NCBI GenBank assembly: GCA_963826125.1
Contig: CAWGVV010000002.1
Location: forward strand, 1,526,855 to 1,590,854
Direction: 5' to 3'
Source: an uncultured delta proteobacterium
GTDB lineage: Bacteria > Desulfobacterota > Desulfarculia > JACQYL01 > CAWGVV01
Length of the DNA stretch: 64,000 nucleotides
Shown here: positions 1,601-50,923 of the stretch, piece by piece
Layout: each line of letters starts with the position of its first letter
Numbering within the stretch: the stretch's first letter is position 1
The notes under the pieces: generated by a model
The model's database searches: none
What the model was told of the DNA's origin: nothing
The model's input: the letters and a program-made list of their open reading frames with translations, nothing else
Made by a program: the position numbers and the translations under genes

Positions 1601-1856
1601 GAGATGGAGAAGGCGGGGAAGGACTGCCAAATAAAACAGCATGAATCGCTCAGGGAGCAGAATTGTTGTTGCTGAGCGAAGAAATAAAACAGCAGAGCAA
1701 ACCGCCCGGGTATGTCTATTTTGATTCAAAGGCTGAGAGAGGAGGGTTGTTGTGGTGAGCAATCGCTTTTGACGTTGATCGATATTGTTCATCAGATCAT
1801 GTAGATACTGATTGAATGCAATTCATTGTTATTTCATGATTATGGAGATTAATGAA

Positions 1857-2852
1857 ATGATAAAAGATCGATATCCACGAGAAACGTTCCCTGGCAACAT
1901 GCCGATAAGAGTATTAAGGAACAACATTCTTTCTTCTTTTCAAAGTTTTGGCAAAGACTCCATGAATAGACATAAGGAATGGGTGGAAAAAGGCCTTATT
2001 AATCCCGCTATAGTATTCTTGCTGGGGAAAGATAGAGTTAGAACTCCTTATGTTCGCTCTAATTCAAGGAAAATAGTTGTTCAAGATACGTTTCTTTCAT
2101 ATTTATGGGTTATAACATATTTCTTTATTATTCTTAACGAAGAAGGATTTCAACCTAGACTTAGTGGTAAAACATTTGATGGTAAGATAAGGTTCGATAG
2201 CCCAATTCTCAAAGACGCCGCTTTATTATTCAACTGGGCTGTAAGTTTAGCGAATGAATACTCGGACTGGCGATATGATTTACCTAATCCAGAAATAATA
2301 AAAAAAGGGACTACAGAATACTACATTTTAAAAATAAATGCATTGTTTCTCGATGCACTTAATTTCATATTATTACATGAATGTTGCCATTTAGTTAATG
2401 GACATTTTGAATTAGTTAAGGAAATTAACAAAAAACAGCATATAGACATTGCTGAAAATGATCTTTTGATTCTCAAAGAACTTGAAAATGATGCCGATAA
2501 TTTTGCAATAAACTCTTTATTTACCGATGCAAATAATAACGAGAAGAAGTTAATTAAAGGCCTCGCTGTTATGTTGGCCAACGTTTCCTTGTTATTTCTT
2601 ATAAAAAATCCTCAATCGGTATCCTGTAGAAATCATCCAGATATTGATACTAGAATAAGTAACTGCTTAGAATATCTAGGGAAAGATATAAAATCATTTG
2701 ACTATATCTGGCAGATAGCTTGCTTTGCTTCAATGATTTTTTTTCGTTTTCATAATATTTCGGTTGATAACGCGCCTGCTGAAACAAGCATTGATTTATT
2801 TAAAAGATATCTCGATGTGTTTGATGAAATTAAGGCTTATGATAGAAGATGA
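1857..2852 (+). CDS. HExxH zinc-metallopeptidase-like protein (ImmA/IrrE- or Lit-like architecture), orphan gene in a very low-GC islet
   Basis: ORF 1812-2852. The preferred start is ATG 1857, preceded by GGAG at 1844-1847; in-frame alternatives are 1812 (TTG), 1836 and 1842. HECCH lies at 2376-2390 inside LLHECCHLVNGH, followed about 35 aa later by ELENDADNFAINSL. This resembles the HExxH...E..AN.FA layout of COG2856/ImmA-IrrE peptidases. Sampled 60-nt lines are about 27-35% G+C, against about 60% in the flanks. Confidence 0.7.
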   Translation: MIKDRYPRETFPGNMPIRVLRNNILSSFQSFGKDSMNRHKEWVEKGLINPAIVFLLGKDRVRTPYVRSNSRKIVVQDTFLSYLWVITYFFIILNEEGFQPRLSGKTFDGKIRFDSPILKDAALLFNWAVSLANEYSDWRYDLPNPEIIKKGTTEYYILKINALFLDALNFILLHECCHLVNGHFELVKEINKKQHIDIAENDLLILKELENDADNFAINSLFTDANNNEKKLIKGLAVMLANVSLLFLIKNPQSVSCRNHPDIDTRISNCLEYLGKDIKSFDYIWQIACFASMIFFRFHNISVDNAPAETSIDLFKRYLDVFDEIKAYDRR

Positions 2853-2883
2853 TTCAAATCTGTTCGGGACTCCTGTTTTCGTT

Positions 2884-4365
2884 ATGACCGATCAAACAAC
2901 AATAAATCCTCCCCTCTCTTTTGATGTGTGCCGCGCGGCGCGGGTTGCACGGGACGCGCGGTATGACGGTCTTTTCTTCTCGGGGGCGGCAAGCACCAAA
3001 GTCTATTGCCGTCCGACCTGCCCGGGGAAACCGCCTCTTGAGTCGAACACTGTCTTTTTTAAAAGCAGGGCTCAAGCCGAAGCGGCGGGGTTTCGGCCGT
3101 GTCTGCGCTGTCGTCCCGAACTGGCTCCTGACCCGCCCCTGCAAAAAGTCGCCGGGTGGCAGGTGAGATGTGCACTTGGCCGAATCCACCGGGGGATGTT
3201 CCCCGACGACGATTTGCCCGGTGTGCAATCGCTCCTCGTCGGCGCGTCGCCGGACCGGGAGCCCGAAGATTTTCACGCCGTTGTCGGGGCCACGGTGTCA
3301 CAGTATGCGAAAACGTTTCAATCGGGCTTCGCCAAAATGGTGCTCACCGATACCCCGTTCCCCTTGGAAGACGTTGCCGTCGCGGCCGGGTTCGACACGC
3401 CGGAAACCATGCTGAACGTCTTGTCCCGCCTCCATGGGCGCGATCCCCTCGCTTTCCGGCGTCCCCTGCCGGTACAGACGTATCCCGGCGTGAAATCGTG
3501 TGCGTTGATGCTGTCCTACCGCCCCCCGTTCGACTGGTCCGCTTTGCTCGGTTTTCTCCGTGCGCGTACCATTACCGGGGTGGAAACGGTGACGGATGAA
3601 ACGTACCGGAGGAGCTTCAGCCTGCACGGATGCCGGGGCTGGTTCGCTCTGCAAAATGTGCCGCAGATGAATGCTATACGGCTGGGAGTGCATGCATCCG
3701 ATCTGTCGTGTTTGATGCAGGTGGTGTGGCGCGTCCGGCGGATGCTCGATCTCGACGCCGATCCGCTGGCTTTGGGAACCTTTTTTGGTAACGATCCTCT
3801 GCTGGGGATCGTCTGGCAACGCCACCCCGGCCTGCGGGTCCCGGTGTGTTGGGACGGCGTCGAATTCGCGGTGCGCGCCATCGTGGGCCAGGTAGTGTCG
3901 GTCACCGTTGCCACGAAGCTCGTGGGCAACATTGCCGGGGCGCTCGGAGACAACCTTTCCCCGGCACCGCCGGAAGGTATTGAAAAGGTGTTCCCCGGTC
4001 CGGACCGGCTGCTGGAGATCGAAATGCAGTCCTGCGGGTTGTCCCGCAACAAGGCGCTCGCCATAGCGACGCTTGCCCGGGCGGTGGTGGACGGCGATCT
4101 TGACTTGGAAACGGCCTGCAATCCGGACGACTTTATCAAGCGGTGCACGGCCCTGCGCGGCATCGGCGAGTGGACCGCTCAAACCATTGCCATGCGAGGG
4201 TTGGGTGACGCGGATGCGTTTCCCGCGGGCGATCTGGGGATCGTGAAATCGTTGGCCGCCGCCGGGCATCCTTTGACGCCGGCGCTCATTCGCAAAATGG
4301 CCGAACGGTGGCGTCCCTACCGTTCCTACGCGGCCATGCTCTTGTGGATGATGCGCACCAAATGA
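2884..4365 (+). CDS. alkA: bifunctional Ada-N (Zn methylphosphotriester sensor)/AraC-HTH regulator fused to DNA-3-methyladenine glycosylase II (AlkA)
   Basis: N-terminal Ada Zn-finger YCRPTCPGK...FRPCLRCRPE, then an AraC-type HTH region. The C-terminal part has AlkA_N plus HhH-GPD features (LRGIGEWTAQTIAMRGLGDADAFPAGDLG). Start trimmed to ATG 2884, because the TTG 2764 extension overlaps the previous gene. Confidence 0.88.
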   Translation: MTDQTTINPPLSFDVCRAARVARDARYDGLFFSGAASTKVYCRPTCPGKPPLESNTVFFKSRAQAEAAGFRPCLRCRPELAPDPPLQKVAGWQVRCALGRIHRGMFPDDDLPGVQSLLVGASPDREPEDFHAVVGATVSQYAKTFQSGFAKMVLTDTPFPLEDVAVAAGFDTPETMLNVLSRLHGRDPLAFRRPLPVQTYPGVKSCALMLSYRPPFDWSALLGFLRARTITGVETVTDETYRRSFSLHGCRGWFALQNVPQMNAIRLGVHASDLSCLMQVVWRVRRMLDLDADPLALGTFFGNDPLLGIVWQRHPGLRVPVCWDGVEFAVRAIVGQVVSVTVATKLVGNIAGALGDNLSPAPPEGIEKVFPGPDRLLEIEMQSCGLSRNKALAIATLARAVVDGDLDLETACNPDDFIKRCTALRGIGEWTAQTIAMRGLGDADAFPAGDLGIVKSLAAAGHPLTPALIRKMAERWRPYRSYAAMLLWMMRTK

Positions 4366-4376
4366 GGAGAAGTAAC

Positions 4377-4913
4377 ATGCGCTACGACGTCATGGATTCG
4401 GAACTCGGCCCGATCCTTTTCGCCCGCGATGACACGGGCGTCAGCCGGGTGCACTTTCTCGGCAGCGCCAAACCGTTGCCTGATAGTGGCGATTGGCTGC
4501 GGACCGATGGGGACCCCTTACTCCGGGAAACTCGCCGGCAATTAACGGCCTATTTCGAGGGAAAGCTCCGCGCGTTTTCCCTCCCGCTTTCGCTGGCGGG
4601 CACCGATTTTCAACTCCGCGTCTGGAAAACGCTGATGGGCATCCCGTACGGGACGACCCGGTCCTATAAGGAGCTGGCCGCCGCCATCGGAAATCCGGCC
4701 GCTTGCCGGGCGGTGGGCAATGCCAACGGAAAGAACAAGCTGTCTATTATTGTCCCCTGACACCGACTCATCGGTACCGACGGGGGCCTCGTCGGATTCG
4801 CCAGCGGCTTGGAAAGAAAAAAATATTTGATTTCACTGGAACGATCACACGCCGAAAAAAAGGACCTCAGGAACGTTTCGTTGGAAATGTATCCGGTCCC
4901 CGCGGCTATTTGA
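4377..4913 (+). CDS. ogt: methylated-DNA--protein-cysteine methyltransferase (Ogt/MGMT) with in-frame TGA (4758-4760) at the active-site Cys position; candidate selenoprotein, otherwise a nonsense pseudogene
   Basis: GGAG at 4366-4369 and ATG at 4377. The MGMT fold is recognisable (FQLRVWKTLMGIPYGTTRSYKELAAAIGNPAACRAVGNANGKNKLSIIVP). TGA falls where PCHR has its Cys, and the same frame continues HRLIGTDGGLVGFASGLERKKYLISLE... to TGA 4911-4913 with no further stops. Confidence 0.7.
4777..4795 (+). promoter_or_regulatory. putative bacterial SECIS-like hairpin downstream of the ogt UGA
   Basis: CCGACG-GGGGCCU-CGUCGG: a 6-bp GC-rich stem with a G-rich 7-nt loop, starting 17 nt after the UGA. A second small hairpin ACCGA-CUCA-UCGGU lies at 4762-4775. 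Confidence 0.4.
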
Positions 4914-5021
4914 ATTGGTTACAATCGTACCGGACACTAAAGCATGCAGGATGAGAACGAAGGGTATCCTTTACGTTTCCGAACCCTTCCTCTCCCAGCC
5001 CCCCAGTACGGCGTAGGCCGT

Positions 5022-7070
5022 CTACGCAAGCGCCGCGCGGACCTTGTCGGCCAACCCTTTCATCGAGAAGGGTTTGGTGATGAATTGGACGCCCCCTTCG
5101 AGCATGCCGCGTTGGGCCACCACGTCGTCCGTGTAGCCGGACATGAAAAGGCACTGTAGTTCCGGCCGGATCTTCTTGAGCCGTTCGGCCAGGTCCCGGC
5201 CGTTCATTTCGGGCAGGATAACATCGGTCACCAGCAGATCGATTGTTTCGGGATACTCCCCGACCAGCCGCACGGCCTCGCTCGGGCTCGCCGCGGTCAA
5301 TACGGTATAGCCCAGTCTCTCGAGGATTCCGCCGGCGAGGGCCAGCACCGGGGCTTCATCCTCCACCACCAGCACCGTTTCGCCGAGGCTCAGGGGAAGG
5401 GCCGCCTTGCTTTCCTTTCGGATATCCGCGGCCTGTCCCTCCTGTCTGGCCAGGTATATTTTGAAGGTCGTACCTTTCCCCGGTTCGCTGTACACATTGA
5501 TAAAACCGTTGTTCTGTCTCACGATGCCGTACACAGTGGATAACCCCAGGCCGGTCCCCCGCCCCGCCCCCTTGGTGGTGAAGAAGGGTTCGAAAATCCT
5601 GCCGAGGGTTTCCCTGTCCATGCCGCAACCGTCGTCGCTCACGGCCAGCATCGCGTATTCCCCGGGTGCGAATTCGACGTGATCGGCGCAATAGTCCTCA
5701 TCAAAGACAACGTTTTCCGTTTCGATGGTGATGTGGCCGACACCGACGATGGCATCGCGCGCATTCACGCAGAGGTTGGCCAGAATCTGTTCGATCTGGG
5801 AGGGGTCTATCTTGATCGGCCATACGTCGGACGACGGGAGCCAGACCAGATCGATGTCCTCGCCGATCAGCCGTCGAATCACCCTCAACATGCCGTCCAC
5901 GGCCCCGTTCAAGTCGAGCACCTCGGGGGTGACTTCCTGTTTACGGGCAAAGGCCAACAGTTGACGGATCATGGCCGAGGAGCGATCGGAAGCATCCAGG
6001 ATTGCATTGAGGTGGCCGTGGAGCGGATGGGTCGTATCGATTTCACACAGGGCCAGTTCCGTGTGGCCGAGAATCACGCTCAACATGTTGTTGAAATCAT
6101 GGGCCATACCGCCAGCCAGCCGGCCGATCGCCTCCATTTTCTGGGACTGCCTGACCTGGGATTCGAGGGAAAGCCGCTCGGTGATGTCTTCGACCATCTC
6201 GATCGCCGAGGTGACCTTGCCCCGCGCATCAAAAATCGGGGTTGAAACGATGCGGTAATTGCGTACGGCGCCTGCCTGCGGGGTTTGCGTCACGGCTTCG
6301 TGGACCAACCCATCCTGCAGCGTCAGGCAGGTTGGGCAGTAGTCGCACACCACTTCGCGCGGCGGGTCGTTGTATGCGTGGTAGCAGAGGGGGGCCTGAC
6401 TCTGATCGATATCCGGGAACCACTCCCGCATCCGGTTGTTCAGCTCGAGAATCTCCATCCCGGGACTGATGACGGACACGCCGATTCCGATGTTGTCCAA
6501 TATACTGCGGATCTTTGCCTCGCTCGCTCCGAGGGCCGCCTCGGCCCGCTTGCGTTCGCGAATATCGCGTTCCAGGAGGCGATTGGTTTCTTCAAGTTGC
6601 AACATTTTCTCTTCCAGCTTGCGGATGAGCGCCGCATTGTACTGTTCGTGGAATTCCGCTTTTTCAGCGTGCGGAGGAGGATTGACCGGCTTGCCGGCTA
6701 CAAAGTTGGCCCAGGTTTCCCTGAGCATGGCCAGCAGTTTGTCCGGTTCCATCGGTTTGACGATGAACCTGTCCGCCCCCAGGCTGAGCGCGAACGCTTC
6801 GTCCTTGGGGTCCGTATAGGTGGCGGTGTAAAAGACAAACGGGATATCCTTGAGCCGTTCGTCCTCTTTCCATGCCCGGCACAGGGAAAATCCGTCCATC
6901 ACCGGCATCAGGATGTCGCTGACGATCATGTCCGGAACCGTGCGTCGAGCCTGTTCCAGGGCCTCGGCCCCGTTCGAAGCCAGTTCCACGTGAAAACCGT
7001 TGGCGGACAAAAGGATTTTCAACAGGTACAGATTCTGTTCGTTGTCGTCCACGATGAGTAGCGTGGTCAT
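5022..7070 (-). CDS. hybrid sensor histidine kinase/response regulator (REC-PAS-HisKA-HATPase-REC)
   Basis: Start trimmed to MTTLLIVDDNEQN (ATG at 7070). N-terminal REC, PAS, the H-box MAHDFNNML, the G-boxes GTGLGLS, and a C-terminal REC (LVVEDE...DLLVTDVILPEMNG). Confidence 0.9.
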   Translation of the reverse strand: MTTLLIVDDNEQNLYLLKILLSANGFHVELASNGAEALEQARRTVPDMIVSDILMPVMDGFSLCRAWKEDERLKDIPFVFYTATYTDPKDEAFALSLGADRFIVKPMEPDKLLAMLRETWANFVAGKPVNPPPHAEKAEFHEQYNAALIRKLEEKMLQLEETNRLLERDIRERKRAEAALGASEAKIRSILDNIGIGVSVISPGMEILELNNRMREWFPDIDQSQAPLCYHAYNDPPREVVCDYCPTCLTLQDGLVHEAVTQTPQAGAVRNYRIVSTPIFDARGKVTSAIEMVEDITERLSLESQVRQSQKMEAIGRLAGGMAHDFNNMLSVILGHTELALCEIDTTHPLHGHLNAILDASDRSSAMIRQLLAFARKQEVTPEVLDLNGAVDGMLRVIRRLIGEDIDLVWLPSSDVWPIKIDPSQIEQILANLCVNARDAIVGVGHITIETENVVFDEDYCADHVEFAPGEYAMLAVSDDGCGMDRETLGRIFEPFFTTKGAGRGTGLGLSTVYGIVRQNNGFINVYSEPGKGTTFKIYLARQEGQAADIRKESKAALPLSLGETVLVVEDEAPVLALAGGILERLGYTVLTAASPSEAVRLVGEYPETIDLLVTDVILPEMNGRDLAERLKKIRPELQCLFMSGYTDDVVAQRGMLEGGVQFITKPFSMKGLADKVRAALA

Positions 7071-10253: not shown

Positions 10254-10694
10254 GGCTTTCTTCCGCCGGGGGTACTGCAACGTGACCGTTCCTTGGCGCC
10301 CGAAGTCCTCGGCCTCGTGGAGAAAACGATTTTTCCATGCACCGAAGGTCCGTTTCGGCGAGTTTCATGTCTCCGGGGAGTAGGGCGACAGTTACGGTCA
10401 CCGGGGTCTCTGCATCCGCGCGCGAGTTCGGGTGAAAGGGACCGGGCATTCCTACATAAAGCAGACCGGAAATTCGCTGTGGCGAGCTATTGGGCCTCAA
10501 CCGGGTCACGTCGGGCACACTGACCAGGAACGGTGGAATTCAATTGATTCCGTCACTCTTAGATGTAAAAAAGGTAATTAATACGAATGAAAATGAAACG
10601 TTTCGACAGTATAGCAGACTTCCCCCCAAGAGCCGAATATTTTTTCCCGTTTAAAAACCCGTGCCGCCGGCGGGCCGGGATATCCGGACGCGGG

Positions 10695-10787
10695 GGCCGC
10701 GTGGCTGGACGGCAGGCAGCCACGGTGCTGAGCGAGCCCGGCGAGGAACTGACACGTCGGTTTCTGGAACGGGTGATGGAGTGTTGA
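10695..10787 (+). pseudogene. orphan 3'-terminal fragment homologous to the ABC ATPase gene end (compare 1505-1600)
   Basis: Translates ..GRVAGRQAATVLSEPGEELTRRFLERVMEC*, against ..GRVVEHGPAARVLSEPEEELTRKFLERVMKY* for the intact gene. Nucleotide similarity continues past the stop codon. No Walker motifs lie upstream. Confidence 0.65.
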
Positions 10788-11073
10788 GAGAAATACAGAG
10801 CGGAAAAGGATTGCCAACAATCATTTTATTGCTCAAAGAGCTGCTCCGAGATGCGCCGGTCCCCGCAAGATACGGTGAAGGGACCTTCTACCTATCCCCG
10901 ATCAAGGATAGCCCCAAAAAGCGGGAACTGTTGCCGCTGATCGAGGAGACAAAATGCAGAGTAAGTTCCCGGTGTTTGTTTATTTAATTCGATGACTCTG
11001 AATCGGACGGGTGGTTGGGTGTTGTGGCGAGGCCGTCCGCTTTTGACACTGATTGGGATCGTTCATCACATCC

Positions 11074-11106
11074 GGTAGGGTGGGTAGAGTGAAACGAAAC
11101 CCACCA
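11074..11106. repeat. palindromic (REP-like) unit GGTAGGGTGGGTagagtgaaacgaaACCCACCA
   Basis: Internal hairpin GGTGGGT/ACCCACC. An inverted partner lies at 11204-11237. Confidence 0.6.
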
Positions 11107-11203
11107 TGCGAGTATTATTATTCCATTGGTGGAATGCGGGCCAATCAATCTCGTGCACGGTTCCGGAGGTAGCGGGGCATTTTTTTATTGGTTGCATATG
11201 AAT

Positions 11204-11237
11204 TGGTGGGTTTCCGCTGCGCTCAACCCACCCTACG
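11204..11237. repeat. inverted copy of the REP-like unit (TGGTGGGTTtccgctgcgctcAACCCACCCTACG)
   Basis: Its reverse complement matches 11074-11106 at both arms. Together the two copies bracket about 165 bp just downstream of the AIPR gene stop, a MITE-like geometry. Confidence 0.6.
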
Positions 11238-11252
11238 CCGTTGTTATTCTTG

Positions 11253-12974
11253 TCAAGATGGGCTAACCATGTTGGCCCAATCTGAATACTGATTTCCTAC
11301 GTTCATCGATAGCATTATGGCAGACACCGTCCTCGAAATAGATTCCACAGCGTCATCTTTTCCCATGCATTCGGAGAGGCTCTCTGGTCGTAATTGAGCA
11401 CAGACAAGGCTCAAGATAGATGTTACTACAGGAAGAGCCGCAGCGACCAATGCTGTGAATGTATAATTGGCTATATTTGCGTTTTCAGGTGAATATGCTA
11501 TAGTACCTATATCGACTCGGCGTCCAATGATCGGCTCTAATGACTTTGCAAGTATCGACATAAAGAAGAATTTGAAACGCAAATTTCTTAAAAGTATTAG
11601 TTGCTGCTCTTCTAATTTCATTAGCCCACCAATTTCTGCTGCCTTTCTCTTGAGTTCCAAACGACGCTCATCAATGGCCCGCGCGAGAGAGTATACAAAT
11701 AAAATATGACGTGCCTTCTTACCGTCAAACGCGGTTTTATAGACCGCACCACGTTCAAATACACGATTCCGCCCGCGGTTTGCCTCGGAATATCGACCTA
11801 CGAAAGCTGCTAGCGGCTGGGCTACATCCTCAATGCTGATTGAGTCTGCTGAAGGACGAAACCCTCTCTTTCGCTCATAAGAATACCCCAAGTCATGAAA
11901 CTCTTTTTCGATGCGAACCTGTTCCGGGTCACCGCTGTATTGATCCCATGTGGTTATCTCATTTTGTGTGTTGTTGAAACGGACAATAGTTCCTATTTTT
12001 TCAGGATCTTGACAGCGTATCACTCGACAGAGAACGCGTAGATTTCTGATGTCGTGCTTACTCAAATCAACGCTTCCAATTGCACCTGTCGTTTGAGCAC
12101 CATTTATTACGGATACACCTGTAAGGCGTGTACCAGAACCCACTTCGGAAAAACCAAGAGTGACAACAGTCACCCCATTATTATATACCCAGAAGTCTGC
12201 GGGGGTTGTCTCTGCTGTGCTACGAATTGCAGTGTTTATCTTACGCCTACGACTAAAACCAAGAAATCCTCGATAGTTAGCAGAAAACAACGCGTCGCCG
12301 TACTTATTAAACATTGCGTGCAGCCAAGAACCAGGAGCTGAAAAAATTCCTGCTTCCCATTCCGGGCCACTTTCCATAAAAGCTATTCTAGCTGGACAGG
12401 TCACCTCGTCCATAACTTCGATATGCGATTCTTGAGAGGCAAACAAGTGTTCTATCTGAGGCGCACCAAGTTCTTTCGCGTTTGAAGTGATGGGAGATGC
12501 AGTACCTAAAAAGTTCCTTAAGTGAGCTACCACAGTTTGTAGCTCTCGATATACGCTCACAGATTCAGGTAGATTGTGGACATATAAAAGGTGGATACTA
12601 CTGATTTCACCTTCATGAAGGGCGTTTCTACATTCCTCGATAGCCGCCCTCAATTCTTTCGGTATTTTTTCTGTATCGCCAGAGAAAAGCCAGGCTATTG
12701 CTGTATTTAGGTCGGCAGCTTTGTTTGAGGGTGCCGTGTCCTTGAGAGATTTCGCATAGTAGCCTTGAGCGAGCACTATCCGACCCTCATCACGATCAAG
12801 ATAGATGAAATCGATCTTTTTGTCGTCATTTCCGTCTGTCAAAGCCTCCGAGGCGAGGGCCTCAAGGTCTGACTCCTGCAGTAAAAGACCGAGTGCCCAC
12901 ACGAGGTGAGCGTTACTCTCACCAATTTTTAATATCAGGGAGTTTTGCGCTCTAAACGCATCTGTATATGCCAT
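11253..12974 (-). CDS. AIPR-family (abortive infection phage resistance) protein
   Basis: 573 aa. The N-terminal segment TDGNDDKKIDFIYLD and the INGAQTTGAIGS motif are typical of the AIPR family as I recall it. AAGAGG RBS. Sampled lines are about 42-47% G+C. Confidence 0.78.
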   Translation of the reverse strand: MAYTDAFRAQNSLILKIGESNAHLVWALGLLLQESDLEALASEALTDGNDDKKIDFIYLDRDEGRIVLAQGYYAKSLKDTAPSNKAADLNTAIAWLFSGDTEKIPKELRAAIEECRNALHEGEISSIHLLYVHNLPESVSVYRELQTVVAHLRNFLGTASPITSNAKELGAPQIEHLFASQESHIEVMDEVTCPARIAFMESGPEWEAGIFSAPGSWLHAMFNKYGDALFSANYRGFLGFSRRRKINTAIRSTAETTPADFWVYNNGVTVVTLGFSEVGSGTRLTGVSVINGAQTTGAIGSVDLSKHDIRNLRVLCRVIRCQDPEKIGTIVRFNNTQNEITTWDQYSGDPEQVRIEKEFHDLGYSYERKRGFRPSADSISIEDVAQPLAAFVGRYSEANRGRNRVFERGAVYKTAFDGKKARHILFVYSLARAIDERRLELKRKAAEIGGLMKLEEQQLILLRNLRFKFFFMSILAKSLEPIIGRRVDIGTIAYSPENANIANYTFTALVAAALPVVTSILSLVCAQLRPESLSECMGKDDAVESISRTVSAIMLSMNVGNQYSDWANMVSPS

Positions 12975-13143
12975 GGTCTACCTCTTGTTCCTTCTCATTT
13001 GCAAAAACCAACGCTTACCCTCAGAGGTTTGCGAGGCGCACAGCGTACAGACAATCTGACAGTAAAGCATTGTTATACTATAAATTTTTGAGTATTGCCG
13101 TCCCACCAAGCAATCAACTTTGCTGATGCTCCTGTTTAACGTG

Positions 13144-14010
13144 CTATAGCGTTTGTTGCTTTCTGAGATTGTTAACGTGTTCAGAGAGAGTACGCGCGTT
13201 TACCGGCCTATAGTGGAACATATTCAGGAACTCCACAGAGTGGAAATCAACATTCCAGAAGCCGGAGTACGCGGTCAGAATATCGCGGTTGGGCAGCACG
13301 ACTATGTCCGTAGGTTTGTATTCTATAGCCACAGAAACTGTTGTCGCACCGAGTTGACCACTGATGCCGAAGCGAAATACGTCTGAGGACTCGTTAAGCA
13401 AACTAACTAATTCGCCTTCAGGCACTAAGTCAGTAAAGAATGTTTGCACCATTAGAGTTATAAACGGACTCCTGAAGGAAGGGCGAACTCTCCAGTCTCC
13501 CCCTAACTTGAAATAGGAAGATATTTCTGCGTTCACTAACCGTGATCTTGTGGTGTTCATATATATCACAAGAAATTTCTCATCTTCTGTGCAGTAATAG
13601 GCATATCTTGAAAAGACTACCGCATTCCTAGGGGGCGAAAGAAACTTTGCAGTGAGCGCCGCAAGAGTAATCCCCAGAATGCCTGTACCAAAAATCGCTT
13701 CTAAGACCGTGATGAAACGAGCGCCATTACCGTCCGGGCTGTAGTCACCATAGCCAATGGTCATAATGCTGATGAAATTGAAATAAACGATATCCCACAA
13801 ACCCACTGCAGAGCAATCAGTAGCTTTGACCCAAGTGTGATCAGGACCGGAGAAATACCACTCTATGCCTGAAATGGCTGCAACCACCAAGACGTAGAGC
13901 GCCAATCCGACAACGGCGATCAACCACATCGGCCAAGAGGCGAGCCACCTTATGCGTAGTCCGGTTCGCTTCCTGGGAAGACGGCACAAGTCCTGATCTT
14001 CATTGTTCAT
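13144..14010 (-). CDS. KirBac-like (inward-rectifier-type) potassium channel
   Basis: 288 aa with a TM1-pore-TM2 core. The K+ selectivity filter TIGYGD is encoded at 13744-13761. The beta-rich cytoplasmic domain starts PPRNAVVFSRYAYYCTEDEKFLVIYMNTTRSRLVNAEI, which resembles the Kir C-terminal domain. Confidence 0.8.
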   Translation of the reverse strand: MNNEDQDLCRLPRKRTGLRIRWLASWPMWLIAVVGLALYVLVVAAISGIEWYFSGPDHTWVKATDCSAVGLWDIVYFNFISIMTIGYGDYSPDGNGARFITVLEAIFGTGILGITLAALTAKFLSPPRNAVVFSRYAYYCTEDEKFLVIYMNTTRSRLVNAEISSYFKLGGDWRVRPSFRSPFITLMVQTFFTDLVPEGELVSLLNESSDVFRFGISGQLGATTVSVAIEYKPTDIVVLPNRDILTAYSGFWNVDFHSVEFLNMFHYRPVNARTLSEHVNNLRKQQTL

Positions 14011-14414
14011 TTTTCTCTCTATAGCTTATATGGCAATTTCGGAATCACTTAACAATAATTAGATATATCCAATGAAATTTAATTTTATCTGTCCGTTGAG
14101 AACATGAGTAGGGATCATTGTCGCCTTGACATCATTGCGGCCTAAGGAATCCCGGGCCGTTTAGATGAGTAACCCGTTTCCAGCAGGTGTGTGGTGAGGG
14201 AACGACAACAAGTATCGTATTTAACCATGCTTGGCTATTACCTTAAAACAGCATATTAAGCAATGAAAATGGTAACGGAGAGAAATCGTCCATGTGCATT
14301 TACAGTAGACGAATCATAACCTAAATCTTTCAAGACAAACCTCCGCAACGCGTCTAAATCGGTAGGATGCGCTGCGTCGCTCGACCCCACCCAAGTCAAA
14401 CGTATCTGCCCATC

Positions 14415-25695: not shown

Positions 25696-25860
25696 GTCGG
25701 TTACCTCATGGTAAAAAAGAAACGGAAAATAGTGAAATTCTTCAATTGTCCTTTGTCCCGCTATCCTACCACCGTATTTTTCCCTTCGTCAAGGCGTTCG
25801 GAAACGACCGGGGCGGGAGAGGGCGGGCGGCGGTTCCCACTCTTCGCACACGGCGCCGTC

Positions 25861-25893
25861 TTGACAAATATACCCATAGGGGCTATAGGTATA
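25861..25893 (+). promoter_or_regulatory. candidate cop-operon promoter with a CsoR-type operator palindrome
   Basis: TTGACA at 25861-25866. The near-perfect inverted repeat TATACCCATAG-GGG-CTATAGGTATA (25869-25893) has AT-rich arms around a G-rich centre, as in known CsoR boxes. It lies about 30 nt upstream of csoR. Confidence 0.5.
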
Positions 25894-25919
25894 AAGGTAC
25901 CACGAACGGAGGTTCTCTG

Positions 25920-26192
25920 ATGTTCCCCAGCCACGACGACCAGATCGTCCGTCTCAATCGAATCGAAGGGCAGATACGCGGGATTAAAAAAATGGTCGAG
26001 GAAAACCGCTACTGCATCGACATCATCCATCAGTGCAACTCGGCGACCGCCGCTCTCAACCAGGTGAAGAAGAACATCCTTCGTCGCCATCTGAGCCATT
26101 GCGTGATGGGAGCTTTCTCCGGAGGGGATTCCGAGGACATCGAGAAGAAGATCGAGGAAGTGGTTTCTCTCATGGAATACATGAACAAATAA
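25920..26192 (+). CDS. csoR: CsoR-family metal-sensing transcriptional repressor
   Basis: Start trimmed to ATG 25920 after GGAGG. RLNRIEGQIRGIKKMVEENRYCIDIIHQ...HLSHC carries the family C-H-C ligand pattern. Confidence 0.85.
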   Translation: MFPSHDDQIVRLNRIEGQIRGIKKMVEENRYCIDIIHQCNSATAALNQVKKNILRRHLSHCVMGAFSGGDSEDIEKKIEEVVSLMEYMNK

Positions 26193-26225
26193 CCCACATA
26201 TCCACACAAGGAAGGAGCAGGGAAG

Positions 26226-26435
26226 ATGGCAACGGTGAAAAAAGAGTTCAGCGTGGAAGGCATGAGCTGCATGCATTGTGAAATGGCTACCCAGAAGGCG
26301 CTCATGGCGGTAAAGGGCGTCGTTTCGGCCAAGGCGGACCACAAGGCGAAAAAGGCCGTGGTGGAAGTGGAAGACAGCGTCGACGACGCCACGTTGAAAC
26401 AGGCCATCACCAAGGCCGGTTACCAGGTGGTGTAA
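26226..26435 (+). CDS. copZ: heavy-metal-associated (CopZ-like) copper chaperone
   Basis: 69 aa with the HMA motif GMSCMHC. Confidence 0.85.
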
Positions 26436-26448
26436 CGGCCGGCGGCAC

Positions 26449-28953
26449 ATGCGGGAAAGTCCTCGGGGAGGTGGAAGCGTGGAACAGAATCATATTCGTA
26501 GCGTAAGTGTGTCCATCGGCGGCATGAGCTGCGCCGCCTGCGTGCGCAGGGTGGAAAACGGCCTTAGGGAACTGGAAGGGGTGGAGGATGCGGCGGTGAA
26601 CTTCGCCTCGGAACGGGCCACGGTCGTTTTTGACGACGAAGCGGTTTCGCTGGACACTATCCGCGACCAGGTGCGGGAACTGGGCTACGAGGTACGGGGA
26701 GTCCAGGACGACACTCCCGGGGGCGAAAAGGAAGTCACCATCAACGTGGGGGGAATGAGCTGCGCCGCCTGCGTACGCCGCGTGGAGAACACGCTCGGTT
26801 CGCTTCCCGGCGTAGCGGAGGCCGCGGTCAATTTCGCCGCCAACACGGCGACCGTCCGGTACGATCCTTCGACGGCCTCCCTTGAATCTTTCGGCGCCGC
26901 GCTGGAAGACGCGGGCTACTCCTTCATCGGAGTGCACGAAGAGGCGACCGCCGACCGGGAACGGGAAGCGCGACAGCAGGAAACGCGCCGGCTCACCCGC
27001 GAGTTCATCCTTTCGGCGGTGCTCACGGCGTTCATCATGATCGGGTCGATGCAGCACATGTTCCCGGTCCTCAGGGACGTTCCGCACGGGCTCATGCACG
27101 TGGTGCTCTTCGTACTGACCACGGTGGTGCTTACGGTTTCGGGCAGGCGCTTCTTCAGCGGGGCCTGGAGCGCGGCCAAACACGGCACCTCGGACATGAA
27201 CACGCTCATCGCCATCGGCACCTTCTCGGCATGGGCGTATTCCACCGTGGCCACCTTCCATCCGCAATTTTTCACGTCTTCGGGCATGGAAGCCGCCGTC
27301 TACTTCGACACCGCGGCCATGATCACCACCCTCATCCTGATGGGTCGTCTGCTGGAAGCTCGGGCGCGGTCCCAGACGTCGGACGCCATCCGCAAGCTCA
27401 TGGGGCTGGCAGCCAAAACGGCGCGAGTGATCAGGGACGGCAAGGAAACCGACGTTCCCGTCAGCCTGGTGAGTAAAGACGACCTGGTGGTGGTGCGGCC
27501 GGGCGAGAAAATCCCGGTGGACGGGACGATCGAGGAAGGCCGTTCCTCCGTGGACGAGTCCATGCTCACCGGGGAACCGATTCCCGTGGACAAAAGCGTC
27601 GGCGACGAAGTGATCGGCGCCACCATCAACAAAACGGGCAGTTTCACCTTCCGCGCCAAACGGGTGGGCGGAGACACCGCTCTCTCCCAGATCATACGGT
27701 TGGTGGAGAAAGCCCAGGGCTCGAAGGCTCCCGTGCAGAGGCTGGCGGACAAGGTGGCGTCCATCTTCGTTCCCGTGGTCATCGGCGCGGCCGTGGTAAC
27801 CTTCATCGTCTGGTATTTCTTCGGCCCCGCGCCGGCGCTCACCTACGCCATGCTCAACTTCGTGGCTGTGCTCATCGTGGCCTGCCCCTGCAGCATGGGC
27901 CTCGCCACACCCACGGCCATCATGGTCGGAACGGGCAAGGGCGCCGAGCTGGGCATCCTCATCAAGGACGCCCAGAGTCTGGAACAGGCCCATCGCATCG
28001 ACACGGTGGTCTTCGACAAAACCGGAACCCTCACCCGCGGCAAGCCCCAGGTAACCGACATCCGCACGGTGGAGGGATTCGACGAAAACGCGCTGCTCGC
28101 CATGGTGGCGTCGGTGGAAAAGGCCAGCGAGCATCCCTTGGGCGAAGCCGTGGTGCAGCTGGCGGAGAGCCGGAACATAACACTCGCCCGACCCGAGGAG
28201 TTCAACGCAATATCGGGGTTCGGTGTGGAGGCCAGGCTGAACGGCACCTCCGTTCTGCTGGGGAACGGAAGGCTCATGAGCGAGCGCGGCGTGAGCGCCG
28301 GAACACTCGCGAAGGACGCCGAAAAGCTGCTGAGCGATGGCAAGACGGTCATTTTCGCGGCGGAAAACGGGGAGCTGAAGGGGCTGTTGGCCATGGCCGA
28401 CACCTTGAAGGAACACTCGGCCGAGGCCGTGGAAATGATGAAGAAGATGGGTCTCGAGGTGATCATGATCACCGGCGACCAGCGGCGCACCGCGGAAGCC
28501 GTGGCCCGGCAGGCGGCCATCGACCGCGTGCTGGCCGAGGTGCTGCCCGGCGACAAGGCCGCCGAGATCAAGCGGCTTCAGGAGGAAGGCAGAATCGTGG
28601 CCATGGTGGGCGACGGCATCAACGACGCGCCGGCGCTGGCTCAGGCCGACATCGGCATCGCCATCGGCGCGGGCACCGACGTGGCCGTGGAGGCTTCGAA
28701 CATCACATTGGTGAAGGACGACCTGCGTTCGGTGGTCACGGCCATCAATCTGTCCCACCGGACCATGCGCACCATCAAGCAGAACCTGTTCTGGGCGTTC
28801 ATCTACAACTCTTTGGGCATCCCCATCGCGGCGGGAGTGCTCTTTCCCTTCTCCGGTATCCTGCTGAAACCCGTTTTCGCCGCCGTGGCCATGGCGTTCA
28901 GTTCGGTGTCCGTGGTGAGCAATTCCCTGCGGCTCAAACGCTTCAGGTCCTGA
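26449..28953 (+). CDS. copA: copper-translocating P1B-type ATPase
   Basis: Two HMA domains (GMSCAACV twice), the CPC motif ([12 protein letters not shown]), the DKTGT phosphorylation site, and the GDGINDAP hinge. Confidence 0.94.
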
Positions 28954-39970: not shown

Positions 39971-41713
39971 CTAGAACCAGTGGTTCCATGAGTATGCTAC
40001 TAGCCCGGCGACGATGAAGTTCGATTCCACCAGGAAAACGAACCGTTCGCTGAGCAGTATGTCCTTTCGTTCGAACGCGGCCACGTAGCCGAGGGCGAAG
40101 AGGCAGGGGATGACCTGCCGGATGAACAGGCTCGGTCCCAGATGAGCCACCCACATGAGCGGCATCAGCACCAGCAGCAGCGCACCAAGGCCGAACAACA
40201 ACCGCAGTGCATTTTTTTCGCCCAGGAAGATCGGGGTGGTTTCCGACCCCACGATGAGATCGCCCTGGATGTCCATGAATTCGATGAGCACCGAACGCAT
40301 GAATACCAGGACGACGACGAACACCAGGGCGACCGGAATGGTAAGGTCGAAGTCCGGAGCGACCGCCAGCGCAGGAAGCACGGTGGTGGCCGCGCCCCAT
40401 CCGGCCGCTATGGAGAGGGTTTTGGATGCCGGAATGTCCTTGAGTCGCCGGATGCGCCTGCGGCGGAACCAGGAGGCGGGAATGACCGGCAGACTGTAGA
40501 CCAATCCCAGCGCGCTCAAGAGCAGCAGGAACAGAAAAGGGAGCAGTCCCAGGAACCAGGTGAGCAGCAGGGCGCACCCCCCGGACGCCAATCCCGTGCC
40601 GATGAGGACTTTCCGGTAGCGGTCGAAAAAACGGCTGCGATCCGGGTCGTTGTACCGCGTGGCTTCCTTGTCCAGGAACCGGTTGAGCATGTGCACGCTG
40701 TAGAGGTAGAACGCCGATACCACGAGAAAAACGGGCAGGGAGGGGCTGGTGTTCAACCCCATGAGCGACACGCTGGCATAGCACAGGGCCGCCGCTCCCA
40801 GCGCCACGTACAGATCGCTCTGCATGAGAAACTTCACCAGCCGGACGGCGCCGTAGCGCAGAAAGGATTCGTCCCGTCCCCGGATGCGTTCCAGCCGCTG
40901 CACCACCTGCTTGATCATCCAGTTGGGCGTGGATGCTCCCGCCGTCACGCCCACCGTGCCCACCGCGGAAAGCATCTGTTCGTCCAGTTCTTCATCCGTT
41001 TCCACGTGCATGGTGGGGACGCCGGTGTCGGCGGCGATGGTCGCCAGCCTTCGGGTGTTTCCGCTGTTTTTGCCCCCCACCACCACCATGCATTCCACCT
41101 GCTCGGCAAGTGCCTGCACTTCCGACTGCCGCCGGTGGGTGGCCCCGCAGATGGTGTCGAACACCTTGAGATTCTTGAACCGGGCGCGGGCATGGGCGGC
41201 GATTTCCTGGTACTTGCCTTCGTGCTGGGTGGTCTGGGCGACCAGGACCGCGGGACCGTCGGGGTCCAGCGCGTCCAGTTCCTCGGGTTCGCCGATCACC
41301 ATCCCCCGCCCGTTGCTGTGTCCCAGCAGCCCGACCACCTCGGGATGGTCCGCGTCGCCCACGATAAGGCCCCGGTAGCCCTGTCCGGTGTATTTATTGA
41401 GGATCACCTGTACCCGGATCACGTGCGGACAAGTGGCGTCCACCATGTCCACGCCGTTTTTCTCGAGTTCCGATTTTACCCGAAGCGGCACGCCGTGCGC
41501 CCGAATGACCACGCACCCGCTGGAACACTCCTCGTCCTCCGCCAGGGGCCGGACGCCCAGGGTTTCCAGCAGTCCCAGGACCTGGGGGTTGTGGATGAGC
41601 GGTCCGTGGGTGGTCACCGGCCCCGCATGCTCGTGAGACACGCGAAGCACCATTTCCAACGCCCGGCGCACGCCCATGCAGAACCCGGCGGTCTTGGCCA
41701 GCTTAACTTTCAT
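39971..41713 (-). CDS. ispH: 4-hydroxy-3-methylbut-2-enyl diphosphate reductase (IspH/LytB) fused to a C-terminal UbiA-family prenyltransferase-like membrane domain
   Basis: The N-terminal ~285 aa are IspH (MKVKLAKTAGFCMGVRRA..., ATCPHV, GGKNSGNT). The C-terminal ~290 aa have 7-8 helices and Asp-rich motifs NRFLDKEATRYND and MDIQGDLIVGSETTPIFLG (D-x3-D-x3-G-x2-T-x-P). Confidence 0.88.
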   Translation of the reverse strand: MKVKLAKTAGFCMGVRRALEMVLRVSHEHAGPVTTHGPLIHNPQVLGLLETLGVRPLAEDEECSSGCVVIRAHGVPLRVKSELEKNGVDMVDATCPHVIRVQVILNKYTGQGYRGLIVGDADHPEVVGLLGHSNGRGMVIGEPEELDALDPDGPAVLVAQTTQHEGKYQEIAAHARARFKNLKVFDTICGATHRRQSEVQALAEQVECMVVVGGKNSGNTRRLATIAADTGVPTMHVETDEELDEQMLSAVGTVGVTAGASTPNWMIKQVVQRLERIRGRDESFLRYGAVRLVKFLMQSDLYVALGAAALCYASVSLMGLNTSPSLPVFLVVSAFYLYSVHMLNRFLDKEATRYNDPDRSRFFDRYRKVLIGTGLASGGCALLLTWFLGLLPFLFLLLLSALGLVYSLPVIPASWFRRRRIRRLKDIPASKTLSIAAGWGAATTVLPALAVAPDFDLTIPVALVFVVVLVFMRSVLIEFMDIQGDLIVGSETTPIFLGEKNALRLLFGLGALLLVLMPLMWVAHLGPSLFIRQVIPCLFALGYVAAFERKDILLSERFVFLVESNFIVAGLVAYSWNHWF

Positions 41714-42689
41714 GCGGAGAATCGCTCCCGTTGAGAGTGGAAAAGTAGTCGGAAACCGCCTCCCGCAACCCTTCCAGGGTCGTGCGATTTTGCACCCGTT
41801 TGCGGAGGGCCGAGCATTCGTGCAGTCCCTTGATGTACCGGATGACCTGATAGCGGATTTTCGGTATCACCATGTTTTCCCGTGCGTATTCGGCGGTGAG
41901 TTGCAGGTGGCGCAGTATCATGCGGTATCGATCATCGGGTGAGGGATTCACCGGAACGCGCTGTTCCAGCACGGCCCGGCACTGTCCGAAAAGCCAGGGA
42001 TTCCCCATCGAGGCCCGTCCTATCATCACGCCGTCGCACCCCGTTTGATCCAGCATCCTGCGTGCGTCGTCCGGTTGCGTCACGTCGCCGTTGCCGATGA
42101 CCGGAATCGAGACCGACCGCTTGATTTCGCCTATGACATCCCAGTCGGCGCTTCCCTCGTACCCCTGCGCGGCGGTTCGCCCGTGCACTGCCACCGCGTC
42201 CGCGCCGCAGTCTTCGGCCAGCCGGGCGATTTCCGCCCCGTTCAATTGTCCCTGGTTCCACCCGGTCCGGATTTTTACGGTGAGCGGACAGGAGACGGCG
42301 CGCCGCACTTCCTTGAGTATCGATCCGGCGACGGCGGGAGTGCGCATGAGTGCCGCCCCCGCGCCGATTTTCACTATTTTTTTCGCCGGGCAGCCCATGT
42401 TGATGTCGACCAGCGCTGCTCCGTATTTTTGCGCCAGTGCCGCGGCGCGAGCCATGGTCAGGGGGTGGGCGCCGAAAATCTGCACCGAGAGCGGCGACTC
42501 CCGCAGCGAGGTGGCAAGATAGCCCAGAGTGCGCCCGTTGCCGTACAAGAGCCCGTCGGCGCTCACCATTTCGGACGTAACCAGGCCGCAGCCCTGTTCA
42601 CGCGCCAGAATGCGCATAACCAGGTCCGTATGGCCGGACATGGGGGCCAGCACAAGAGGGGTTTCAAAAATGAGAGAGCCGATTTTCAT
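41703..42689 (-). CDS. dusB: tRNA-dihydrouridine synthase
   Basis: LVLAPMSGHTD..., DINMGCPAKKI, VKIRTGW, AVHGRT. Start trimmed to ATG 42689. Confidence 0.88.
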   Translation of the reverse strand: MKIGSLIFETPLVLAPMSGHTDLVMRILAREQGCGLVTSEMVSADGLLYGNGRTLGYLATSLRESPLSVQIFGAHPLTMARAAALAQKYGAALVDINMGCPAKKIVKIGAGAALMRTPAVAGSILKEVRRAVSCPLTVKIRTGWNQGQLNGAEIARLAEDCGADAVAVHGRTAAQGYEGSADWDVIGEIKRSVSIPVIGNGDVTQPDDARRMLDQTGCDGVMIGRASMGNPWLFGQCRAVLEQRVPVNPSPDDRYRMILRHLQLTAEYARENMVIPKIRYQVIRYIKGLHECSALRKRVQNRTTLEGLREAVSDYFSTLNGSDSPHES

Positions 42690-42845
42690 GGAGAGGAAGT
42701 ATACGGTACGAACGCCGAATGCGCAATCGTCATTGCCGCCCGTCCCGGCGCGCGGTTGACCGGGGAGTATTTTTTCCCTATAGTCCGCACACGTCTTCCG
42801 GCACACCGCCGCGAGAAATCCTCCGTCCGGAGTATCCGTACCGTC

Positions 42846-43400
42846 ATGAAGCAGTCATCCAACAAATACGTTACGCTCGTCACCGGCGGCTCACGCTGCG
42901 GCAAGAGCAGCCATGCGCTGGCTCTGTGCAACCGGCACGAGGGAAACAAGATTTTCCTGGCCACCGCCGAGGCGCGGGATGACGAGATGACGGAACGCAT
43001 CCGCAGGCACAAGGAGGAACGGGGCGCCGAGTGGCGCACCGTCGAGCAGCCCCTGGAAATAGCCGACGCATTGGTGCGGCTGTCCGGCCCCGGCCGGGTG
43101 GTGCTCCTGGACTGCATCACCCTGTGGCTCAGCAACTTGCTGATGAAATATCGCAACGACGAGGAAACCGTAGTCGCCCATGTTCGAACGCTGCGGGACG
43201 TCCTCGCCGCCTGCACCGGCCCGGTGATCGTCGTCACCAACGAGGTGGGTATGGGCATCGTGCCGGGGGACAGCCTCAGCCGTCTGTACCGCGACCTGGC
43301 GGGCTCCGCCAACCAGGCCATCGCCTCGGTGGCCGGAACGGTCATCCTCATGGTGTCCGGCATCCCCCTCGAGGTGAAGAGTCCGCCCGCGCCCCAGTGA
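42846..43400 (+). CDS. cobU: adenosylcobinamide kinase/adenosylcobinamide-phosphate guanylyltransferase
   Basis: P-loop VTGGSRCGKSSHA, then IFLATAEARDDEMTERIRRHKEER and VTNEVGMGIVP. Only the last 184 codons of ORF 42045-43400 are coding; the rest is antisense to dusB. Confidence 0.88.
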   Translation: MKQSSNKYVTLVTGGSRCGKSSHALALCNRHEGNKIFLATAEARDDEMTERIRRHKEERGAEWRTVEQPLEIADALVRLSGPGRVVLLDCITLWLSNLLMKYRNDEETVVAHVRTLRDVLAACTGPVIVVTNEVGMGIVPGDSLSRLYRDLAGSANQAIASVAGTVILMVSGIPLEVKSPPAPQ

Positions 43401-43440
43401 AAACCAAAACATCCCATCACGATAACAGGAGAAATCCGTC

Positions 43441-44496
43441 ATGTCTCTGTTTCACGATACTTTGCGTTCCATACCGCCCATCGATCCGACCGTCGGCCAA
43501 AAGGCCCAGGCCCGATTGGACAACCTCACCAAACCGCGAGGCAGCCTCGGCCGGCTCGAAGAGTTCGCCCGATCCTACGTTTCCATGCGTAACGACCTGA
43601 ACGCGTCCATCCACAGCAAGGAAGTCCTGGTTTTCGCCGCGGACCACGGCGTGGTGGAGGAAGGCGTAAGCGCCTACCCGCGGGACGTCACCTATCAGAT
43701 GGTGCTCAATTTCCTCAACGGCGGCGCCGGCATCAATGTGATCGCCCGCCACGTGAACGCCCAGGTGACCGTGGTGGACATCGGGGTCGACCATGATTTC
43801 GAACCCGTGCCCGGACTGGTGATGCGCAAGGTGGCGCCGGGTACGGCCAACATGGCCAAGGGTCCGGCCATGTCGGAAGAAACGACGGTGAAGGCCCTGG
43901 AAGTGGGCATCGTCACGGCATTCGAAGCCATCGATCACGGGGCGGACATCCTCGGCACCGGCGAAATGGGCATCGGCAACACCACGGCCAGCAGCGCGGT
44001 CACCGCCGTGTTCACCGGCAGGCCGGTGAAGGAAGTCACCGGACGGGGCACGGGAATCGACGACGCGGCGCTGGCCGCCAAGGTGGAAGTGATCGAACGG
44101 GCCATCGCCTTGAATCGACCCGATCCTTCCAACGGGCTGGACGTGCTGGCCAAGGTGGGGGGGTTGGAGATTGCGGGAATCGCGGGCATGATCATCGGCG
44201 CCGCGTCGCGAAGGGTGCCGGTGGTGCTGGACGGATTCATCTCCTCGACGGGCGGTCTGGTGGCCCGTGAACTGAACCCGGAAATCGCGAACTACCTTTT
44301 CGCCGCCCACCGTTCGGTGGAAATCGGCCACCACGCCATCCTCGAACGGATCGGGCTCATCCCCTTCGTGGACCTCAACCTGCGGCTGGGCGAGGGCACC
44401 GGGGCCGCCATCGGCATGGACATGATCGAGCTGAGCCTGAAAATAATGAACGAAATGGCGACGTTCGACGAGGCGGGGGTGAGTGACAAGGAATAA
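43441..44496 (+). CDS. cobT: nicotinate-nucleotide--dimethylbenzimidazole phosphoribosyltransferase
   Basis: [32 protein letters not shown], and [10 protein letters not shown]. Confidence 0.92.
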
Positions 44497-44518
44497 AACG
44501 CTGTACACCACAGGCGTG

Positions 44519-44565
44519 GAAATCCCCCCCGGCCCCCTTTGAAAACGGGGGAGAGCGGATTTCCG
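44519..44565. repeat. nested palindromic element (GGAAATCC...CCCCCTTTGAAAACGGGGG...GGATTTCC)
   Basis: 8-bp outer arms enclose a 5-bp inner hairpin. It sits directly after the cobT stop. Confidence 0.55.
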
Positions 44566-44625
44566 GCGCCTTGGCCCGGCAGACCCTGATTGTTCTGATC
44601 GGCTGACACGATTTCTCGGCCTGTC

Positions 44626-44653
44626 TGTCATTTCGACCGAAGGGGGAAATCTC
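44626..44653 (+). repeat. dispersed 28-nt repeat R1 (TGTCATTTCGAnCGnnnGnGnGAAATCTC), copy 1
   Basis: TGTCATTTCGACCGAAGGGGGAAATCTC abuts the GIY-YIG start codon. Confidence 0.7.
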
Positions 44654-44983
44654 GTGCCAAAAGAGTATCGTTATTTCGTCTACCTTATGACGAACAAGTA
44701 CGACAAAGTCATGTATGTTGGAGTAACGGGCAATCTTTTACGCCGTGTCTATGAGCACAAGAAAAAGCTGGTAGATGGTTTTACCAAGAAGTACAATGTA
44801 AATAAGCTGGTGTATTTTGAAGAGACCAATGATGTTTACGCGGCTATAGAAAGAGAAAAAGAGATCAAGAAGTGGCGTAGAGAGAAGAAAGATAATCTCG
44901 TAAGGACCGTGAATCCTGAGTATCTTGATTTAAGCGATACATGGTATGCAGCCTCTCCCTTGGGTCGAGATAATCTGCCATGA
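44654..44983 (+). CDS. GIY-YIG nuclease-family protein (COG2827-like, stand-alone URI domain)
   Basis: YFVYLMTNKYDKVMYVGVTGNLLRRVYEHKKK...YAAIEREKEIKKWRREKK. GTG start. Sampled lines are about 33-47% G+C. Confidence 0.85.
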   Translation: MPKEYRYFVYLMTNKYDKVMYVGVTGNLLRRVYEHKKKLVDGFTKKYNVNKLVYFEETNDVYAAIEREKEIKKWRREKKDNLVRTVNPEYLDLSDTWYAASPLGRDNLP

Positions 44984-45009
44984 GATTTCTTGCTGGCGCT
45001 CGAAATGAC
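44981..45009 (-). repeat. R1 repeat, copy 2 (inverted)
   Basis: GAGATTTCTTGCTGGCGCTCGAAATGACA is the reverse complement of TGTCATTTCGAGCGCCAGCAAGAAATCTC. It overlaps the GIY-YIG stop codon. Confidence 0.7.
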
Positions 45010-45165
45010 AGCCCGTGGGCGAGCGTTCGTGATGATTCCATAAGGAAGAAGCCCGCACCTCTTCCCTGTCGGCTGGACATCGTAAGGTTCAGATGGGCGT
45101 TAGTAAGCGGGATCGCACGGTTTGGCTATTGTAATGAACCCTAAGTCATTCTCAAGGCCCGATCA

Positions 45166-50909: not shown

Positions 50910-50923
50910 TCCGAAATCCTCCC

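Follow-up and report, generated by a model that had tools for sequence, protein, structure and literature searches.

The ogt gene described here lies in the window (the whole stretch of DNA that was analyzed, 64 kb in length) and carries a UGA codon at the position of its catalytic Cys residue. This raises the question of whether the codon terminates the protein or is translated and, in the latter case, which amino acid it specifies. The evidence presented below favors its decoding as selenocysteine (Sec), in which case ogt would encode a selenocysteine form of the suicide DNA repair protein Ogt/MGMT; the estimated probability of this reading is approximately 0.88.

The ogt gene and its active-site codon

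The segment from 4377 to 4913 on the forward strand is a complete Ogt/MGMT gene. Its features are as follows:

4377-4913, + strand: ogt (O6-alkylguanine-DNA alkyltransferase), 178 codons with one in-frame UGA at codon 128
4758-4760, + strand: predicted Sec128 codon (UGA), at the alkyl-acceptor Cys of the PCHR motif

Starting from the ATG at 4377, the frame comprises 127 sense codons, the last of which are GNANGKNKLSIIVP (encoding NKLSIIVP), followed by the TGA at 4758-4760; it then continues with HRLIGTDGGLVGFASGLERKKYLISLE and remains in frame for 50 codons up to the stop codon at 4911-4913. In protein searches, for which Cys was written at the TGA position, the product matched Pfam families PF02870 (4.5e-12; profile positions 1-71 of 71) and PF01035 (4.3e-31; 1-80 of 81) and scored 109.9 bits against the NCBIfam model TIGR00589, which has a cut-off of 46.4. 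The best solved structures were those of Mycobacterium tuberculosis OGT (4bhb/4wx9), aligned to residues 2-160 with an E value of ∼5e-38. The original prediction of an ogt frame broken by a single TGA at the PCHR Cys site agrees with the sequence as read, and the two Pfam domains, one ribonuclease-like at the N terminus and one DNA binding at the C terminus, are complete.

The active-site motif in this gene is P-[UGA]-H-R, and the Cys codon itself is absent. The PCHR motif would be chemically retained only if Sec is inserted, and the comparative data support such insertion, short of proof. The residues lining the nucleophile in characterized alkyltransferases, namely, the conserved Tyr, the Arg finger, the Asn hinge, His, and Glu, are represented in the product by Y97, R111, N120, H129, and E155, all correctly spaced from residue 128; they are the equivalents of Y114, R128, N137, H146, and E172 of hAGT (for the numbering, see PMC4150793).

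Conservation of the UGA codon among homologs

Homologous loci were compared using DNA from species-representative genomes and metagenomes. In the same alignment column, the site is TGA in all 23 close homologous loci in which it is readable, as opposed to TGC or TGT in all 136 of the more distant ones, so that the aligned Cys/Sec pairs that had been anticipated are found at exactly this codon. Among the best 120 protein database matches, 110 are gene calls that were ended at the ogt UGA codon or just past it; these are 127 to 129 residues long (with one of 147), end with IIVP, and display 68 to 80% identity. More than 100 database protein clusters (again among the best 120 matches) stop at residue 127. 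The named TGA-type genomes are Deltaproteobacteria/Desulfobacteraceae MAGs, including “Candidatus Desulfacyla euxinica,” and one of the shortened TGA-type proteins carries the label Desulfosarcina sp.

Across 19 distinct TGA genes, dN/dS was 0.14 upstream of the UGA and 0.08 downstream (codons 129 to 156), with frequent synonymous changes in the latter part at R130, G133, G144, R147, L151, and L154. Because of the value of 0.08 over codons 129 to 156, the stretch 3′ of the UGA is evidently translated and under strong purifying selection. This value and the 50 codons in frame bear out the initial view that the frame after the UGA is not that of a decaying pseudogene. Past the UGA, the frame is open in 22 of the 23 TGA loci. 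In the exception, L092 (positions 3075-3165), the G run of the hairpin described below has lost 1 nucleotide (GGGGG to GGGG), which puts the C-terminal part out of frame; this loss is probably an error, because the coverage of the contig is only 3.6x.

A conserved stem-loop downstream of the UGA codon

The region immediately 3′ of the UGA contains a putative SECIS element with the following parts:

4763-4807, + strand: extended SECIS-like stem-loop, with two 3-bp lower helices and an upper stem (RNAalifold, 18 TGA genes)
4778-4794, + strand: invariant upper stem (7 bp) and apical loop, with the core CGACGGGGGNCTCGTCG

A GC-rich hairpin at 4777-4795, 17 nucleotides past the UGA and within the SECIS distance range, was part of the original prediction and was recovered here. 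It begins 16 to 17 nucleotides downstream of the UGA; in the window sequence, an extra C-G pair lengthens the stem to 8 bp (4777-4795), with a folding energy of −10.9 kcal/mol, and the apical loop, GGC at 4785-4787, starts 24 nucleotides after the UGA. [quoted passage not shown] 2). The hairpin, with its 3-nucleotide GGC loop, 7- to 8-bp stem, distance of 24 nucleotides, and energy of −10.9 kcal/mol, lies within all these limits. The generic bSECIS model alone has little discriminating power, because a loose version of it also accepts 47% of the Cys homologs within the first 60 nucleotides. Position offers a stronger control: at the homologous 19 nucleotides, an energy of −7 kcal/mol or lower is reached by only 2 of the 132 distinct sequences of the Cys form, both of which are nested within the TGA clade (see below).

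The core CGACGGGGGNCTCGTCG (4778-4794) is shared unchanged by the 19 distinct TGA genes apart from the third base of the loop, which is U in most members of the TGA clade and C in the window, the loop codon G137 being GGT, GGA, or GGC. No compensatory covariation was detected in the upper stem by RNAalifold (18 TGA genes); compensatory double changes are missing because this stem never varies. A synonymous-site test was used in place of covariation. Among the 64 codon columns in which the amino acid is invariant and more than one codon is possible, just 6 are devoid of synonymous variation; four of these form the stem (D135 GAC, G136 GGG, L138 CTC, and V139 GTC), and another is H129 (CAC), which adjoins the UGA. 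When the comparison is narrowed to the 41 columns with four- or sixfold degeneracy, the only ones that never vary are G136, L138, and V139. The clustering of the unvarying codons has a permutation P value of ∼0.001, and the codons that flank the hairpin core vary freely at synonymous sites in the 19 TGA genes. The changes seen in the lower helices are exclusively one-sided and keep the pairs, such as GC to GU or CG to UG (RNAalifold).

Comparison of the TGA genes shows the stem-loop to be under constraint at the RNA level. The original prediction had left open whether the hairpin is conserved together with the TGA, and the synonymous-site conservation was seen only in the TGA forms. The support for the hairpin comes from this comparison between sequences and not from thermodynamics, as a single-sequence fold of 4758-4820 was not more stable than shuffled sequence (z = −0.46). 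No Rfam family was matched in the window at the gathering thresholds, and a permissive Rfam scan of 4700-4900 returned only chance matches to mir-1231 and to a lncRNA (E = 2.1). The core is present once in the window, which ruled out the hairpin as a dispersed repeat. The element resembles the E. coli fdhF-type SECIS and the bSECIS consensus in being an intragenic stem-loop just 3′ of the UGA with a small apical loop that starts with GG; SelB is its putative binding partner, and Rfam offers no model against which the element could be scored.

Alternative readings of the UGA codon

If the UGA were a true stop codon, ogt would yield only a 127-residue N-terminal fragment and would represent either a decaying pseudogene or a noncatalytic, ATL-like lesion binder. 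Annotation of 127-residue products by gene callers throughout the clade is in line with such termination, as is the fact that no Sec machinery is visible in the 64-kb window, but the 28 codons past the UGA evolve more slowly (dN/dS of 0.08) than the part that precedes it and retain His129 and Glu155 of the catalytic network. In addition, the open frame is disrupted only in L092, the locus with 3.6x contig coverage, among the 23 TGA loci, and a fragment ending at Pro127 would be without the last part of the DNA_binding_1 domain. These observations make termination at codon 128 very improbable. Next to no weight can be given to the possibility that an ordinary TGC or TGT codon was misread during sequencing or assembly, a concern already raised with the original prediction and favored by nothing beyond its prior possibility: a separate assembly, that of run ERR11571143 in Logan, matches positions 3637-5645 of the window exactly, TGA included, and 18 further distinct sequences from different samples and species-level genomes have TGA at this site as well.

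The UGA could also be read through without Sec, by a near-cognate tRNA-Trp or tRNA-Cys or owing to an altered genetic code, with the hairpin serving as a general stimulator of read-through. In other systems, read-through can be stimulated when a leaky UGA-C context is followed by a stable hairpin; besides, the Sec machinery of the organism is itself presumed. This explanation is nonetheless improbable. In the window, ∼20 genes confirmed by Pfam, among them the one immediately preceding ogt, have TGA as their normal stop codon, so the genetic code is standard and not reassigned, and the use of Trp or Gly as the nucleophile residue would abolish alkyl transfer. Further, the hairpin agrees in location and shape with the SelB-dependent SECIS model (PMC13188914), and a UGA that aligns with a catalytic Cys residue is the usual hallmark of selenoproteins (PMC1287953, PMC1976440).

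Cys-containing relatives of the TGA genes

The nearest full-length Cys proteins (P0002 to P0010) share 70 to 75% identity with the ogt product, and the DNA was traced for three of the corresponding loci, L162 to L164. In a neighbor-joining tree (constructed with no bootstrap), the TGA forms make up one clade, and L162 to L164 fall within this clade as neighbors of the TGA locus L088. Such nesting is suggestive of Sec-to-Cys reversions. L162 and L163, the two Cys forms that fold to −7 kcal/mol or lower, have retained the hairpin with one A-U pair turned into G-U; in L164, the loop is changed and a synonymous GTC-to-GTG substitution, found in no TGA gene, breaks a stem pair. This is the pattern that would be expected after replacement of Sec by Cys, with the SECIS freed from constraint. 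The three loci also differ from the TGA forms, which mostly follow adaA-alkA, in their genomic neighborhood, as their genes are preceded by a YjbQ gene and an ORF of 86 residues.

Genomic neighborhood of ogt

The ogt gene follows a gene for another type of alkylation repair protein, with the junction between the two organized as follows:

2884-4365, + strand: adaA-alkA fusion (Ada zinc methyl-acceptor domain, AraC-type HTH, and AlkA 3-methyladenine glycosylase), first gene of the operon
4366-4369, + strand: GGAG ribosome-binding site, 7 nucleotides before the ogt ATG at 4377 (read from the sequence)

The fusion protein matched the Pfam domains Ada_Zn_binding (1e-24), HTH_18, and AlkA_N (5.5e-38), as well as the NCBIfam model PRK10308 for AlkA (2.6e-56). 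Its stop codon, TGA at 4363-4365, is directly followed by the GGAG. The proposed linkage of ogt to an Ada-AlkA fusion (stop at 4365, GGAG, ATG at 4377) thus stands, with the domains confirmed and the layout being that of M. tuberculosis, in which an adaA-alkA fusion and a separate ogt belong to an alkylation-induced system (PMC5751216). M. tuberculosis OGT (Rv1316c) is at the same time the best structural match of the ogt product, and the gene order, with the AdaA-AlkA fusion preceding a separate ogt, is the same; unlike the protein described here, it has an active-site Cys and needs no recoding signal.

A homolog of adaA-alkA is encoded directly upstream of the TGA-type ogt in most of the related loci. 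In L001 (3570-3710) and L003 (2632-2712), the sequence upstream of the TGA-type ogt codes for just a 27- to 47-residue remnant of the AlkA C terminus; some lineages have therefore lost their adaA-alkA partner. A promoter and terminator scan of 2500-5200 found nothing above the shuffled expectation. Directly upstream of adaA-alkA, at 1812-2852 (+ strand), there is an ORF with a Peptidase_U49 (Lit-like) domain, situated in a stretch of lower GC content (∼0.49).

Search for Sec machinery and other genes of the window

No selA, selB, or selD genes were found by Pfam analysis of ∼50 ORFs in the 64-kb window, which is a part of an ∼2.67-Mb contig, and tblastn searches with E. coli SelA, SelB, and SelD gave no match in the window or in any of the fetched loci. 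ARAGORN detected no tRNA genes in the 64-kb window and hence no tRNA-Sec there. The gene itself, together with a lineage described as selenoprotein rich (PMC1976440), is the basis for inferring that the source organism decodes Sec.

A listing of every in-frame TGA between long open stretches was too noisy and was replaced by Pfam analysis of the ∼50 ORFs, from which no further selenoprotein gene emerged in the 64-kb window. A same-frame pair on the reverse strand separated by one TGA (49167-50408 and 50409-50978) was considered as a selenoprotein gene and rejected, as it consists of two complete unrelated genes, coding for a family III CoA-transferase and a rubrerythrin, respectively. At 25746-28953 (+ strand), a gene for a CsoR-type metal repressor is followed by one for a P-type ATPase with HMA domains, with no in-frame TGA; a Sec form of that ATPase family was reported in Carboxydothermus hydrogenoformans by Wu et al. 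(PMC1287953).

Two other parts of the window look like ordinary chromosomal context: a cobalamin lower-ligand cluster at 42045-45915 (cobU, a cobT-type DBI_PRT gene, and cobS) and a cell division and cell wall cluster at 57444-63957 (rsmH, a gene for an FtsI-type penicillin-binding protein, murE, and a large ORF after these). A single ORF at 39971-41713 (− strand) joins a LytB/IspH domain with a UbiA prenyltransferase domain. The segment from 10300 to 14400, of low GC content (0.46 to 0.52), codes for an AIPR abortive infection-type protein (11253-12974, − strand) and an Ion_trans_2 channel protein (13144-14010, − strand) and may be a small defense or mobile islet.

Proposed mechanism

With the UGA read as Sec, SelB carrying Sec-tRNA(Sec) would bind the stem-loop as a bacterial SECIS and deliver Sec to the UGA codon, giving a 178-residue protein with Sec at position 128. 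The selenolate, already deprotonated at neutral pH, would take the alkyl group from O6-alkylguanine in a single irreversible step, like the Cys thiolate of ordinary Ogt. Where selenium or the Sec machinery is limiting, translation would be expected to halt at codon 127, leaving an inactive fragment. As the presumed second cistron of an adaA-alkA/ogt adaptive response operon, ogt would probably be induced by alkylation damage, as the operon as a whole probably is, by analogy with the M. tuberculosis system (PMC5751216).

The presence of selenium in this form of Ogt and its ability to transfer alkyl groups are predictions from the sequence. Such Sec chemistry is workable, because the engineered human AGT variant C145U protects E. 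coli against MNNG; this variant also tolerates the loss of Asn137, unlike the Cys form (PMC4150793). The likeness lies in the use of Sec for the alkyl-acceptor Cys, with O6-methylguanine repaired in vivo (PMC4150793, Haruna et al. 2014), but C145U is an artificial construct, with Sec inserted at UAG via EF-Tu without a SECIS, and not a natural gene.

Relation to previously predicted Sec-MGMT proteins

The statement in the original prediction that a Sec form of this family had been predicted in selenoproteome surveys is correct. [quoted passage not shown] Later surveys added two sequences from the metagenome of the Olavius symbionts (PMC1976440) and one from GOS (PMC2398784), and the Sec-MGMT family has also been cataloged in reviews from 2022 and 2026 (PMC9312934 and PMC13188914). 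The literature searched contained no natural Sec-Ogt that had been shown experimentally to contain selenium. The ogt gene of the window is a new member of this known, so far only predicted selenoprotein family.

Compared with the published description of CHY0809, ogt is alike in belonging to the PF01035 family, in having the UGA at the active-site Cys, and in the stem-loop that directly follows. It differs in coming from a large clade, the named members of which are Desulfobacterota MAGs, and not from a thermophilic firmicute, as well as in its linkage to adaA-alkA. In the 2005 paper, the Sec form was taken to be confined to a single organism, whereas more than 100 clusters among the best 120 matches carry it here. 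The size of this clade, the invariant SECIS, the link to adaA-alkA, and the putative Cys revertants were not found in the literature in a nonexhaustive search; a large Desulfobacterota-type clade with these properties, including such revertants nested within it, may go beyond the published accounts.

Implications

No new category is introduced by this gene, as publications on the family go back to 2005 and an engineered Sec-AGT has proved functional. The use of Sec in such a protein is nevertheless odd, in that each residue of this expensive amino acid would be spent in one reaction. A broader reading, which we consider unlikely, is that the Sec form is old, monophyletic, and strongly maintained in the sulfate-reducer-type Desulfobacterota, where it would be tied to adaA-alkA and would rarely revert to Cys, and that selenium gives the protein a property that Cys cannot. 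If this were true, the possible gains would include activity without Asn-assisted deprotonation, resistance to inactivation where sulfide or metals abound, action on a broader set of adducts, and even regeneration of the alkylated selenium site, i.e., turnover; alkylation repair in these organisms would then depend on the selenium supply.

With its invariant SECIS and nested Cys forms, the clade provides a clean natural set of genes for testing what selenium contributes to alkyl transfer as opposed to redox reactions and how a SECIS decays after the replacement of Sec by Cys. In the public annotation, ogt and more than 100 of its relatives are shortened to a 127-residue fragment that does not include the active site. 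Because the annotation stops at residue 127, the selenoproteome of these anaerobes is undercounted, as is their capacity for repair.
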